A DNA stretch of 64,000 nucleotides, from the sequence record OP172784; one strand, written 5' to 3'. Position 1 is the first letter of the stretch. The number at the start of each line of letters is the position of its first letter. This stretch comes from Escherichia phage ECO07P1. The notes beneath the pieces are model-generated. The model saw only the letters and a list, made by a program, of their open reading frames with translations. It was not told the DNA's origin and searched no databases. The position numbers and the translations under genes are program-made. This document shows, piece after piece, positions 18,888 through 26,726 of this stretch.

Positions 18888-20255
<1,368 letters not shown>

Positions 20256-20356
20256 TAATTGAGGCCTGAGTATAAGGTGACTTATACTTGTAATCTATCT
20301 AAACGGGGAACCTCTCTAGTAGACAATCCCGTGCTAAATTGTAGGACTACCCTTTA

Positions 20357-20388
20357 ATAAATACTTCTATATTTAAAGAGGTATTTAT
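20357..20388 (+). promoter_or_regulatory. stem-loop covering the I-TevI ribosome-binding site and start codon
   Basis: 8-bp stem ataaatac (20357-20364) / gtatttat (20381-20388); SD aaagagg in loop, ATG begins in 3' arm. Confidence 0.55.
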
Positions 20389-21124
20389 GAAAAGTGGAAT
20401 TTATCAGATTAAAAATACTTTAAACAATAAAGTATATGTAGGAAGTGCTAAAGATTTTGAAAAGAGATGGAAGAGGCATTTTAAAGACTTAGAAAAAGGA
20501 TGTCATTCTTCTATAAAACTTCAGAGGTCTTTTAACAAACATGGTAATGTGTTTGAATGTTCTATTTTGGAAGAAATTCCATATGAGAAAGATTTGATTA
20601 TTGAACGAGAAAATTTTTGGATTAAAGAGCTTAATTCTAAAATTAATGGATACAATATTGCTGATGCAACGTTTGGTGATACATGTTCTACGCATCCATT
20701 AAAAGAAGAAATTATTAAGAAACGTTCTGAAACTGTTAAAGCTAAGATGCTTAAACTTGGACCTGATGGTCGGAAAGCTCTTTACAGTAAACCCGGAAGT
20801 AAAAACGGGCGTTGGAATCCAGAAACCCATAAGTTTTGTAAGTGCGGTGTTCGCATACAAACTTCTGCTTATACTTGTAGTAAATGCAGAAATCGTTCAG
20901 GTGAAAATAATTCATTCTTTAATCATAAGCATTCGGACAAAACTAAATCTAAAATATCAGAAAAGATGAAAGGCAAAAAGCCTAGTAATATTAAAAAGAT
21001 TTCATGTGATGGGGCTATTTTTGAATGTGCAGTAGATGCAGCTAGACATTTTAAAATTTCGTCTGGATTAGTTACTTATCGTGTAAAATCTGATAAATGG
21101 AATTGGTTCTACATAAATGCCTAA
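20387..21124 (+). CDS. I-TevI: I-TevI GIY-YIG homing endonuclease
   Basis: 245-aa ORF inside td intron; N-terminal GIY..YVG motif, C-terminal zinc finger and DNA-binding region. Confidence 0.9.
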   Translation: MKSGIYQIKNTLNNKVYVGSAKDFEKRWKRHFKDLEKGCHSSIKLQRSFNKHGNVFECSILEEIPYEKDLIIERENFWIKELNSKINGYNIADATFGDTCSTHPLKEEIIKKRSETVKAKMLKLGPDGRKALYSKPGSKNGRWNPETHKFCKCGVRIQTSAYTCSKCRNRSGENNSFFNHKHSDKTKSKISEKMKGKKPSNIKKISCDGAIFECAVDAARHFKISSGLVTYRVKSDKWNWFYINA

Positions 21125-21271
21125 CGACTATCCCTTTGGGGAGTAGGGTCAAGTGACTCGAAACGATAGACAACTTGCTTTAACAAGTTGGAGATATAGT
21201 CTGCTCTGCATGGTGACATGCAGCTGGATATAATTCCGGGGTAAGATTAACGACCTTATCTGAACATAATG

Positions 21272-21583
21272 CTTCCATTTAATATTGCATCATATGCTGC
21301 GTTAGTTCATATTGTAGCTAAGATGTGTAATCTTATTCCTGGAGATTTGATATTTTCTGGCGGTAATACTCATATCTATATGAATCACGTAGAACAATGT
21401 AAAGAAATTTTGCGTCGTGAACCTAAAGAGCTTTGTGAACTGGTAATAGGCGGATTGCCTTATAAATTCCGTTATCTTTCTACTAAAGAACAATTGGAAT
21501 ACATTCTTAAACTCAGGCCTAAAGATTTCGTTCTCAAAGATTATCAGTCCCACGGTGTCTTGAAAGGAAAAATGGCGGTGTAA
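21272..21583 (+). CDS. td: thymidylate synthase, exon 2
   Basis: Frame continues from exon 1 (LPFNIASYAALVHI...). Confidence 0.85.
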   Translation, partial: LPFNIASYAALVHIVAKMCNLIPGDLIFSGGNTHIYMNHVEQCKEILRREPKELCELVIGGLPYKFRYLSTKEQLEYILKLRPKDFVLKDYQSHGVLKGKMAV

Positions 21584-22150: not shown

Positions 22151-24405
22151 TTAATGTTATCAAAAGTAGTGGTGTTTCTCAGAGCTTTGACCCGCAAAAA
22201 ATTATTAAAGTTTTATCTTGGGCAGCTGAAGGAACATCTGTAGATCCTTATGAATTATATGAAAATATTAAATCATATCTCCGTGATGGAATGACCACTG
22301 ATGACATTCAAACCATTGTAATTAAGGCTGCTGCGAATTCTATTTCAGTTGAAGAGCCTGATTATCAATACGTAGCCGCTCGTTGTTTAATGTTTGCTCT
22401 TCGTAAGCATGTTTACGGGCAGTATGAGCCCCGTTCATTTATTGACCATATTTCTTACTGTGTAAATGAAGGTAAATACGACCCTGAATTGTTGTCAAAA
22501 TATTCTGCAGAAGAAATTACATTTTTAGAATCAAAAATTAAGCACGAGCGGGATATGGAATTTACTTATTCCGGGGCGATGCAATTAAAAGAAAAATATC
22601 TAGTTAAAGATAAAACCACTGGTCAAATTTATGAAACTCCACAGTTTGCATTTATGACTATTGGAATGGCATTGCATCAAGATGAACCTGTTGATAGATT
22701 AAAACACGTTATCCGTTTTTATGAAGCAGTATCTACTCGACAGATTTCATTGCCAACTCCTATTATGGCTGGATGTCGTACTCCAACTCGGCAGTTTAGT
22801 TCATGTGTTGTTATTGAGGCAGGTGATTCGCTGAAGTCTATCAATAAAGCTTCTGCTTCAATTGTTGAGTATATTTCTAAACGAGCCGGAATCGGTATTA
22901 ACGTTGGTATGATTCGTGCCGAAGGTTCTAAGATTGGCACAGGTGAAGTACGCCATACTGGTGTTATTCCTTTTTGGAAACATTTTCAGACTGCTGTTAA
23001 ATCATGTTCACAGGGCGGAATTCGTGGCGGCGCTGCTACTGCTTATTATCCTATTTGGCATTTGGAAGTTGAAAATCTTCTCGTTTTGAAAAATAACAAA
23101 GGTGTAGAAGAAAACCGTATCCGTCATATGGATTATGGCGTCCAGCTGAATGATTTGATGATGGAACGTTTTGGAAAGAACGACTACATTACTTTGTTCA
23201 GTCCGCATGAAATGGGTGGCGAGCTTTATTATTCTTATTTTAAAGACCAAGACCGTTTCCGCGAATTATACGAAGCAGCAGAAAAAGACCCTAATATTCG
23301 CAAAAAGCGTATTAAAGCACGTGAACTGTTTGAATTGCTCATGACTGAACGATCAGGAACAGCAAGGATTTATGTGCAGTTCATTGATAATACGAATAAC
23401 TATACTCCATTTATTCGTGAAAAGGCACCTATTCGTCAGAGTAACTTGTGTTGTGAAATTGCTATTCCAACAAATGATGTGAATAGTCCTGATGCTGAAA
23501 TTGGATTGTGCACGTTATCTGCATTTGTGTTGGATAACTTCGATTGGCAAGACCAAGATAAAATTAATGAATTAGCAGAAGTTCAAGTTCGTGCTCTTGA
23601 TAATCTTTTGGATTACCAAGGATATCCAGTTCCTGAAGCAGAAAAAGCTAAAAAGCGTCGAAATCTTGGTGTAGGTGTTACTAACTATGCAGCTTGGCTG
23701 GCAAGTAACTTTGCTTCTTATGAAGATGCTAACGATTTAACACATGAACTATTTGAGAGATTACAGTATGGGCTCATTAAAGCATCCATTAAGCTCGCCA
23801 AAGAAAAAGGACCTTGCGAATATTATTCAGACACTCGTTGGTCTCGAGGCGAATTACCTATCGACTGGTACAATAAAAAGATTGACCAAATCGCAGCTCC
23901 AAAATACGTTTGTGACTGGTCGTCGCTGCGGGAAGACCTTAAGCTCTTTGGCATCCGTAATAGCACATTATCAGCACTTATGCCATGTGAGTCATCTTCC
24001 CAAGTTTCTAACAGTACAAACGGTATCGAGCCTCCACGTGGACCAGTCTCTGTTAAAGAATCAAAAGAGGGTTCCTTTAATCAAGTCGTGCCCAATATTG
24101 AACATAACATAGACCTGTATGATTATACGTGGAAATTAGCTAAGAAAGGTAATAAACCTTATCTTACACAGGTAGCTATTATGCTGAAATGGGTATGTCA
24201 ATCAGCTTCAGCGAATACATATTATGACCCGCAGATTTTTCCAAAAGGAAAGGTTCCAATGTCAATAATGATTGATGACCTTTTGTATTTTTGGTATTTT
24301 GGCGGAAAAAATTTCTATTATCATAATACCCGCGATGGTTCTGGTACTGATGATTATGAAATAGAAACTCCAAAAGCTGAAGATTGTTCATCCTGTAAAT
24401 TATGA
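22141..24405 (+). CDS. nrdA: aerobic ribonucleotide reductase large subunit
   Basis: 754-aa ORF with ATP-cone N-terminus and C-terminal Cys pair; followed by nrdB. Confidence 0.95.
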   Translation: MQLINVIKSSGVSQSFDPQKIIKVLSWAAEGTSVDPYELYENIKSYLRDGMTTDDIQTIVIKAAANSISVEEPDYQYVAARCLMFALRKHVYGQYEPRSFIDHISYCVNEGKYDPELLSKYSAEEITFLESKIKHERDMEFTYSGAMQLKEKYLVKDKTTGQIYETPQFAFMTIGMALHQDEPVDRLKHVIRFYEAVSTRQISLPTPIMAGCRTPTRQFSSCVVIEAGDSLKSINKASASIVEYISKRAGIGINVGMIRAEGSKIGTGEVRHTGVIPFWKHFQTAVKSCSQGGIRGGAATAYYPIWHLEVENLLVLKNNKGVEENRIRHMDYGVQLNDLMMERFGKNDYITLFSPHEMGGELYYSYFKDQDRFRELYEAAEKDPNIRKKRIKARELFELLMTERSGTARIYVQFIDNTNNYTPFIREKAPIRQSNLCCEIAIPTNDVNSPDAEIGLCTLSAFVLDNFDWQDQDKINELAEVQVRALDNLLDYQGYPVPEAEKAKKRRNLGVGVTNYAAWLASNFASYEDANDLTHELFERLQYGLIKASIKLAKEKGPCEYYSDTRWSRGELPIDWYNKKIDQIAAPKYVCDWSSLREDLKLFGIRNSTLSALMPCESSSQVSNSTNGIEPPRGPVSVKESKEGSFNQVVPNIEHNIDLYDYTWKLAKKGNKPYLTQVAIMLKWVCQSASANTYYDPQIFPKGKVPMSIMIDDLLYFWYFGGKNFYYHNTRDGSGTDDYEIETPKAEDCSSCKL

Positions 24406-24456
24406 TATAATTTGACTCACGGACGAGTCACTATCTATTAACTAAGCGGAAAATTT

Positions 24457-25132
24457 ATGAGCACAGTTTTTAATACAAATCCAGTTGATGTTTTAAAAGA
24501 ACCTATGTTCTTCGGTTCAGGTCTTGGTATTGCGCGTTATGATATTCAACGCCATAAAGTTTTTGAAGATTTAACCGAAAAGCAATTATCATTTTTCTGG
24601 CGTCCTGAAGAAGTAAACTTAATGATGGATGCTGCACAATTTAACAAGCTTCCTCAATATCAGCAAGATATTTTTACTAATAACCTGAAGTATCAATCAC
24701 TTCTAGATAGCATTCAGGGTCGTGCACCGTCTGCTGTACTTATGTCGTTAATTTCAGACCCAAGTCTTGATACATGGGTTGCTACATGGACTTTTAGTGA
24801 AACTATTCACAGTCGTTCATATACTCATATCATGCGAAATCTTTATACTGATCCATCGAAGGTATTTGATGAGATTGTACTAGATGAAGCTATCATGAAA
24901 CGTGCTGAATCTATCGGTCGCTATTATGATGATGTTCTGACTAAAACCCGTGAATGGGAAAATGCTAAAGAATTTACAGAACTAGCTAAAGAATCTCCTG
25001 ATGCTGTTTTTCGTTTAAATCGAGCTATTAAACAAGAAGCCGAAGCTAAACGAGCACTAATGAAATCTCTTTACCTCTGTTTGCACGTTATTAATGCCTT
25101 AGAAGCTATTCGTTTTTATGTATCTTTTGCGT
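24457..25132 (+). CDS. nrdB: ribonucleotide reductase small subunit, exon 1
   Basis: ORF ends ...EAIRFYVSFA then stop; splice after U 25132 restores the conserved VSFAC motif. Confidence 0.85.
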
Positions 25133-26223
25133 AAAATGCGCCTTTAAACGGTAACGTTTATCGAAAACTCCTTTAATTGCTGGAAAGTCCTTTATAGGAA
25201 AACTAGCAGCCAAGGTTTTGCTTGCACCTTTAATTAGTATAATATAAATATGATTATACTTTTAAGAGGATGCACAATTGAACTATAGAAAAATTTGGAT
25301 AGATGCGAACGGACCTATACCTAAAGATTCTGATGGAAGAACATACGAAATCCATCATAAAGACGGTAACCGTGAAAATAATGATTTAGATAATTTGATG
25401 TGCCTTTCTATACAGGAACATTATGATATACATTTAGCTCAAAAAGATTACCAGGCTTGTCATGCTATAAAGCTTAGAATGAAATATTCTCCTGAAGAAA
25501 TTTCTGAATTAGCTTCTAAAGCCGCAAAATCTAGAGAAATCCAGATTTTTAATATTCCTGAAGTACGAGCTAAAAATATTGCCTCTATTAAATCTAAGAT
25601 AGAAAATGGTACATTTCATCTTTTAGACGGTGAAATACAGCGTAAATCTAATTTAAATAGAGTTGCATTAGGTATACATAATTTTCAACAAGCTGAGCAT
25701 ATTGCAAAAGTTAAAGAACGCAATATTGCAGCTATAAAAGAAGGTACTCATGTATTTTGCGGTGGTAAAATGCAGTCAGAAACTCAATCAAAACGGGTAA
25801 ATGACGGTTCACATCATTTCTTGTCAGAAGACCATAAGAAAAGAACATCAGCAAAAACATTAGAAATGGTTAAGAACGGGACCCATCCTGCACAAAAAGA
25901 AATCACATGTGATTTCTGCGGTCACATTGGTAAAGGTCCTGGATTTTATCTAAAACATAATGACAGATGTAAATTAAATCCAAATAGAATTCAATTGAAT
26001 TGTCCATATTGTGATAAGAAAGATTTATCACCATCAACATATAAACGATGGCACGGCGACAATTGCAAAGCAAGGTTCAACGACTAGTCTTCGGACGTAG
26101 GGTCAAGCGACTCGAAATGGGGAGAATCCCTCTGGGATTGTGATATAGTCTGGTCTGCATAGTAATATGTAGCAGTTCATAAGAGAACGGGTTGAGAATT
26201 AGCGAGCTCAATCGAACATAACG
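25133..26223 (+). mobile_element. group I intron in nrdB (1091 nt) carrying an intact HNH endonuclease ORF
   Basis: 3' end ...atcgaacataacg (terminal G) parallels the td intron 3' end; junction codon t+gt = Cys. Confidence 0.8.
25278..26087 (+). CDS. I-TevIII: HNH homing endonuclease (I-TevIII-like, 269 aa)
   Basis: Intron ORF with HNH motif (EIHHKDGNRENNDLDNLMCLSIQEHYDIH) and C-terminal CxxC pairs; track start is TTG. Confidence 0.7.
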   Translation: MNYRKIWIDANGPIPKDSDGRTYEIHHKDGNRENNDLDNLMCLSIQEHYDIHLAQKDYQACHAIKLRMKYSPEEISELASKAAKSREIQIFNIPEVRAKNIASIKSKIENGTFHLLDGEIQRKSNLNRVALGIHNFQQAEHIAKVKERNIAAIKEGTHVFCGGKMQSETQSKRVNDGSHHFLSEDHKKRTSAKTLEMVKNGTHPAQKEITCDFCGHIGKGPGFYLKHNDRCKLNPNRIQLNCPYCDKKDLSPSTYKRWHGDNCKARFND

Positions 26224-26726
26224 GTACCTTTAACTTCCATAAGAACATGGAAATCATGGAAGGTAATGCCAAGATTATGAAGTTCATTGCACGTGATGAG
26301 CAGCTTCACCTTAAAGGCACTCAATATATTATTCGTCAACTTCAATCCGGTACTGATGGTGATGAATGGGTTAAAATTGCTCAAGAGTGTGAACAAGAAG
26401 CAGTTGATATTTTCATGGAAGTTAACCGCCAAGAAAAAGATTGGGCAGTTCATTTATTTAAAGATGGCGATGTTCCTGGATTAAATACAAATAGCATGTG
26501 GAGCTTTATTGATTACTTAACTGTATCTCGTATGAAACAGTGCGGTCTTCCATGCCCAATTACCGATGCTCCGGTTAAACATCCATATCCTTGGATTCGT
26601 GAATATCTTAATTCTGATAATGTTCAATCCGCGCCACAAGAAGTAGAACTGTCATCTTACCTTGTTGCACAGATTGATAATGATGTTGATGATAAAGTTA
26701 TGATGAGTTTTAAAAAATACTTTTAA
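26224..26726 (+). CDS. nrdB: ribonucleotide reductase small subunit, exon 2
   Basis: Frame gives C-TFNFHKNMEIMEGNAKI..., matching the conserved RNR small-subunit region. Confidence 0.85.

Follow-up and report, generated by a model that had tools for sequence, protein, structure and literature searches.

The window analysed here is the whole 64,000-nt stretch of DNA from Escherichia phage ECO07P1 (sequence record OP172784). [quoted passage not shown] Exon 1 (24457-25132) holds codons 1-225 and the first base of Cys226, and its reading frame, from 24457, runs into a TAA stop codon at 25132-25134. Exon 2 (26224-26726) holds the last two bases of Cys226 and continues to the stop codon of the gene; the open reading frame (ORF) ending at 26726 matches the C-terminal part of NrdB. 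Joining U25132, the 5' splice site, to G26224-U26225 makes the codon TGT (Cys226), and splicing in silico at these positions yields a 1179-nt open frame for a protein of 392 amino acids, whose junction reads ...RFYVSFACTFNFHKNMEIMEGNAK.... This product aligns end to end with the E. coli R2 protein (1piy_A, E 3e-127), and the alignment is ungapped at the junction (RFYVSFACTFNF versus RFYVSFACSFAF). An earlier sequence-only reading of this DNA had placed the split after 25132 and the resumption at 26224, which the reading frame and the colinearity with E. coli R2 confirm; its further claim, that a junction codon t+gt restores the motif VSFAC, is upheld by the return of FYVSFAC in the spliced 392-residue product. 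The ligated exon junction in RNA is predicted to read ...UUUGCGU followed directly by GUACCUUU.... Exon 2 is identical to that of phage T4 at 496 of 503 nucleotides.

The insert between the exons (25133-26223) is exactly 1091 nt long; it starts AAAATGCGCC and ends GAACATAACG, with G26223 as the terminal (omega) G of a group I intron. Its 3' end had been likened to that of the intron in the td gene, and rightly, as the td intron ends GAACATAATG at 21262-21271. The helices of the insert were written out in window coordinates and their pairing was checked position by position, giving fifteen helices with standard pairs throughout (among them P1-P6, P6a, P7, P7.1, P7.2, P8, P9, P9.1 and P9.2). In P1 (25129-25141) the exon bases GCGU (25129-25132) pair with the internal guide GCGC (25138-25141) at 4 of 4 positions, and the wobble U25132•G25138 at the 5' splice site falls inside this 4-bp helix. 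The 5' half of the ribozyme (25146-25226) comprises the P2 hairpin, the 5' strand of P3, the P4/P5 hairpin domain, and the 5' strands of P6 and P6a. The 3' half (26064-26223) comprises the 3' strands of P6a and P6, J6/7, P7, P7.1, P7.2 and the 3' strand of P3, and in its remaining part P8, the 3' strand of P7, P9, P9.1, P9.2 and the terminal G. An endonuclease ORF on the same strand as nrdB (25278-26087) occupies the P6a loop between the two halves and runs into the 3' half, its final 8 codons sharing their sequence with P6a and P6 (3' strands), J6/7 and P7 (5' strand).

Substitutions among relatives tend to respect these pairings. Two P9 pairs that are G-C in T4 read A-U and G-U here. In P2, Salmonella phage SEA1 has a compensatory G-C in place of A25148-U25157, next to a pair changed from C-G to U-G. 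Such pairing-preserving substitutions back the helices in a supportive way only, being few events in few sequences. The features of a group I intron that can be examined in a sequence are all present, namely the core helices, the U•G pair and terminal G, the restoration of the host reading frame, and compensatory changes. On these features the insert is a group I intron, of IA type with P7.1 and P7.2. A lower-stringency DNA search showed the 3' core (26066-26223) to resemble group I introns of Staphylococcus, Yersinia, Bacillus, Vibrio and many other phages, and the T4 nrdB intron has been described as self-splicing (PMC2790892).

Covariance-model searches detect this intron poorly, despite its complete core. 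A scan of the whole window at the Rfam gathering thresholds gave no match, for either the nrdB or the td intron, while an E-value scan found the model RF00028 (Intron_gpI) with a score of 33.9 bits, short of the cut-off of 50 (E 3.5e-6). In that alignment the 3' core is placed with high posterior probability and the 5' half is forced into the ORF. The 800-nt ORF interrupting the core accounts for the low score and for the empty gathering-threshold scan, and the td intron was missed likewise because an inserted ORF splits its core. Phage vB_vPM_PD112 supplies a natural ORF-less nrdB intron of 304 nt, which scores 68.6 bits against RF00028 (E 3e-16; cut-off 50), with a match extending from P1 in exon 1 through P9. 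Outside the deleted ORF, this copy differs from the window at 2 nt, both of them in the L6a hairpin loop.

The empty gathering-threshold scan could also be taken as a sign that there is no intron here at all, and that a free-standing HNH gene has been inserted into nrdB, leaving it split or pseudogenised. Existing annotation reads that way. Escherichia phage ECO07P3 (OP172786), a Tequatrovirus from human faeces, shares a 6.4-kb stretch around the intron with the window at 100% identity, and its record (OP172786.1 140659-143549) has no intron feature and lists each of exon 1, the ORF and exon 2 as a separate "hypothetical protein" CDS. We consider this explanation extremely improbable, given a complete group I core with correct splice-site features, a reading frame restored exactly at the junction, and a match between the insert and an intron with published self-splicing and homing.

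That published intron is the nrdB intron of phage RB3 (KM606994), which occupies the same insertion site, has the same length of 1091 nt, and is identical to the window at 1088 of 1091 positions (99.7%). The three substitutions comprise one at 25307 (synonymous), one at 25344 (Asp23 in RB3, Tyr here) and one at 25556 (synonymous). All three fall inside the ORF, so that the ribozyme outside it is identical to that of RB3. The RB3-type intron and its endonuclease, I-TevIII, were first described by Eddy and Gold in 1991, as cited in PMC2988022 and PMC2790892, and the biochemistry of I-TevIII was described by Robbins et al. in 2007 (PMC1865063). Near matches to the nrdB intron were found in 128 phage records, of which 84 retain at least 80% of its full length, and the exact window protein occurs on 164 public contigs in a large protein collection. 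With identities of 99.7-100% to dozens of database copies, chance resemblance is not an issue.

Laboratory T4 (NC_000866) shares the insertion site, the promoter, the RNA hairpin and the ends of the ORF, and its ribozyme carries a few structure-preserving substitutions. Its nrdB intron, however, is 598 nt long: it lacks window positions 25342-25832 and the single bases 25196 and 26220, and it has eight substitutions. The missing 491-nt segment is flanked by an imperfect repeat (GAAGAACATA / GAAGACCATA). Its loss removes the H-N-H motif and shifts the frame, leaving a 97-aa remnant that begins at another ATG and is annotated as a "defective" I-TevIII. By itself the T4 intron does not move; mobE carries it along (PMC2790892). 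The view that T4 has a deletion derivative, with an intact version in a wild relative, is thus borne out by the 491-nt loss and by the RB3 match; it does not hold insofar as it makes the intact form a rarity of one relative.

Other copies show further stages of decay, including an intron of 589 nt in LH2, beside the 598 nt of T4, and annotated remnants of 73, 87 and 229 aa. Direct repeats of ACAATTG flank the I-TevIII ORF in the window, at 25274-25280 (which includes the TTG start codon) and at 26059-26065. The ORF deletion in PD112 (locus L004, 1201-1504) joins exactly these two repeats and leaves the ribozyme intact.

The ORF at 25278-26087 runs from a TTG start to a TAG stop and encodes 269 amino acids. 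Its Pfam HNH_3 match covers residues 4-48 (48.7 bits, cut-off 24.8, E 6e-13), and phrog_12324, "intron-like DNA endonuclease," covers residues 1-269 (E 1.9e-193). The H-N-H catalytic motif HHKDGNRENNDLDNLMCLSIQEHYDIH (25353-25433, residues 26-52) includes H26, H27, N39 and H48. Two zinc fingers follow toward the C-terminus, the first of the form CX2CX12HX3C (25908-25970, residues 211-231) and the second CX2CX13HX3C (26001-26066, residues 242-263). The HNH_3 match and the two fingers confirm an expectation drawn from the letters alone, that of a 269-aa ORF with an HNH motif and C-terminal cysteine pairs. Alignment to RB3 I-TevIII, which had been proposed as a check, is full length with 268 of 269 residues identical, D23Y being the sole difference, and clustering at 90% identity groups the window protein with TEV3_BPR03. 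In the RB3 enzyme, the alanine mutants H26A, H27A, N39A and H48A do not cleave but still bind; two CX2CX12-13HX3C zinc fingers (C211/C214 and C242/C245) are required for binding; and the protein is a dimer whose interface lies in the C-terminal ~75 residues (PMC1865063). All 8 of the residues H26, H27, N39, H48, C211, C214, C242 and C245 are present in the window protein. Judged by this comparison, the ORF is an intact I-TevIII, a homing endonuclease of the H-N-H (ββα-Me) type. The intron-encoded H-N-H enzyme I-HmuI, from the DNA polymerase intron of SPO1, likewise has an extended modular DNA-binding region; unlike I-HmuI, I-TevIII makes a double-strand break as a dimer (PMC1865063).

The more diverged copy in SEA1, a Salmonella phage of the genus Gelderlandvirus, keeps the ORF at full length. 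Its intron is 89.5% identical to that of the window, and 704 of 807 ORF nucleotides agree. With dS at 0.57 and dN at 0.065, dN/dS for the ORF is 0.11, indicating that purifying selection acts on the whole protein. A search of PDB sequences with the window protein returned only a chance hit (1j5x, E 0.29) and no sequence-detectable solved relative. Pfam also reports a marginal match to FlgM (anti-sigma-28) at residues 74-114 (25497-25619; 26.2 bits, cut-off 25, E 9e-6), which we set aside. This stretch links the catalytic region to the DNA-binding one, and the match is probably an accidental likeness of a helical segment.

The TTG start deserves separate treatment. An in-frame TAA stands upstream of the ORF at 25263, and the first in-frame codon of start type after it is TTG 25278; the first in-frame ATG is codon 41 (25398), downstream of H26, H27 and N39. 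A protein begun at that ATG would have 229 residues, would lack those three catalytic positions, and might bind DNA without cutting it, for example as a repressor. There is no in-frame ATG farther upstream, and at least one database record (P0010) annotates the 229-aa version. A Shine-Dalgarno sequence, AAGAGG (25264-25269), nevertheless precedes the TTG at a spacing of 8 nt, and the sequence from there to the TTG is unchanged in SEA1. Codons 2-40 carry the HNH_3 match (residues 4-48) and are conserved at the protein level in SEA1, and the accepted GenBank CDS of RB3 I-TevIII (X59078 191-1000; KM606994) begins at the same TTG. A start at codon 41 seems very unlikely to us. On annotation, Shine-Dalgarno spacing and conservation, given also the in-frame stop and the position of the ATG, TTG is the accepted and best-supported start. 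The earlier proposal of a TTG start with no usable ATG finds support in the TAA at 25263, the placement of the first ATG at codon 41 and the RB3 annotation.

The one residue that separates the window protein from RB3 I-TevIII is encoded by codon 23 (25344-25346), TAC (Tyr) here and GAC (Asp) in RB3. It lies three positions before the catalytic H26, and activity is low and labile even for the RB3 enzyme (PMC1865063). One may ask, then, whether the intron of the window splices but carries an endonuclease inactivated or attenuated by D23Y, or by a weak TTG, and is resident and non-mobile as in T4. The distribution of the two alleles speaks otherwise. The window 65-mer at codon 23 (Tyr) has an exact match in at least 60 phage records, one of them phage U5, while the RB3 65-mer (Asp) is found identically in only 9 records, all of them from RB3, RB5, RB6, RB7, RB9 and RB10. 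The diverged SEA1 copy has Tyr23 as well, and its dN/dS of 0.11 over the whole ORF would be unexpected for a dead gene. The residues defined by mutation are all intact, and the RB3 gene, with the same TTG, supports homing. We hold a non-mobile intron with a failed endonuclease to be unlikely, with only a small chance of being right. The counts of records and the SEA1 residue make Tyr23 the common I-TevIII allele and probably the ancestral one, with Asp23 apparently private to the RB3 group, and we infer that the Y23 allele is active and the intron mobile in this phage. A more speculative extension, which we rate as doubtful, would make Asp23 partly responsible for the weakness and lability of RB3 I-TevIII and for low homing, with Y23 the better homing endonuclease; if that were true, the RB3 laboratory reference allele would be sub-optimal.

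Candidate expression signals precede the ORF. At 25243-25250 the sequence matches the T4 late-promoter box, TATAAATA, exactly. For all three intron ORFs of T4, late and middle promoters have been mapped by primer extension (PMC2988022). A predicted RNA hairpin (25223-25274; -14.9 kcal/mol, z = -4.2) would sequester the Shine-Dalgarno sequence, with AGAGG (25265-25269) paired to CCUUU (25227-25231), and the geometry of T4 late promoters implies that transcripts begun at the late promoter should lack its 5' arm. This layout of hairpin and late promoter has been described for I-TevI and is said to be common to I-TevII and I-TevIII (PMC2988022, PMC3014915). Abutting the late promoter is a sequence resembling the homing site (25216-25242), whose best ungapped 24-nt comparisons with the intronless exon junction, beginning at intron positions 25216-25219, agree at 18 of 24 positions. 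An autorepression operator of this kind has been proposed, as putative, for I-TevIII (PMC2988022), and the 25216-25242 sequence may fit that role. A scan for sigma-70 promoters and terminators found 12 against 11 expected from shuffles, with no enrichment; it is uninformative here because the relevant promoter is the T4 late promoter.

Taken together, we regard it as nearly certain that the locus holds the full-length RB3-type nrdB group I intron of T-even phages with an intact I-TevIII gene. No sequence feature opposing this reading was seen. The mechanism proposed for it draws on the present analysis for the split, the splice product, the pairings, the identity to RB3, the catalytic and zinc-binding residues, the promoter box, the hairpin and the purifying selection, and on the RB3 and T4 literature for splicing, cleavage positions, dimerisation, homing and late expression. 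The intron RNA would fold into a ribozyme of subgroup IA type (P1-P9.2, with P7.1 and P7.2 included) and be excised from the nrdB pre-mRNA by two guanosine-initiated transesterifications, which would ligate U25132 to G26224 and allow synthesis of a normal NrdB of 392 residues. The late promoter TATAAATA would give the I-TevIII ORF a transcript of its own. In the longer nrdB transcripts of the early and middle periods the hairpin would hide the Shine-Dalgarno sequence, and for that reason the protein, initiated at TTG, is proposed to be made only late. With an N-terminal H-N-H nuclease and a C-terminal double zinc-finger domain for DNA binding and dimerisation, I-TevIII would bind the intronless nrdB allele across the insertion site and cut both strands 14 and 16 bp upstream, at ~25116-25119 in window coordinates. 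The cut allele would then be repaired from an intron-bearing genome and acquire both the intron and the exon sequence beside it. Cleavage by the RB3 enzyme, and homing of the RB3 intron driven by it, have been demonstrated (PMC1865063).

NrdB residues ~172-199 (window 24970-25060) are strongly unlike T4 and 4 aa longer (KEFTELAKESPDAVFRLNRAIKQEAEAKRA versus KDMVEYYKDQGLILADKDVEQRAKRD in T4); by contrast, the last 50 nt of exon 1 are identical to T4, as are 496 of the 503 nt of exon 2. Such a pattern would fit the co-conversion of exon sequence near the homing site.

The window holds a second intron of similar design. The td (thymidylate synthase) gene (19707-21583) is also split by a group I intron (about 20256-21271), its exon 1 extending to about 20255, and the intron ORF (20387-21124) encodes a 245-aa GIY-YIG protein beginning MKSGIYQIKN..., evidently I-TevI. 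The T4 td intron with I-TevI shares with the nrdB intron a looped-out ORF, late expression, the 3' end GAACATAAYG, and cutting upstream of the insertion site (PMC2988022). The two enzymes differ in that I-TevI is a monomeric GIY-YIG endonuclease cutting 23 and 25 nt upstream (PMC2988022), whereas I-TevIII is a dimeric H-N-H endonuclease cutting 14 and 16 bp upstream (PMC1865063).

The nrdA-nrdB gap of the window (24405-24457) is a 51-nt spacer without mobE. The same interval holds mobE, a free-standing HNH gene, in both T4 and RB3, and in T4 also nrdB.1. In T4 the endonuclease from this neighbouring gene mobilises the dead intron in trans; the window would therefore present an intron that is self-mobile but has no such neighbour.

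The element itself is already known, a textbook model of intron homing present in dozens of sequenced phages, and its description here has little significance beyond annotation. Its use lies in correcting the record of ECO07P3, in which three CDSs should become one spliced nrdB CDS and an intron-encoded homing endonuclease. For the nrdB intron as a family, records with the intact form (84) are now more numerous than those with the T4-type deletion, and the natural copies span all stages of decay, from the full ORF through internal deletions to precise loss of the ORF between the ACAATTG repeats.
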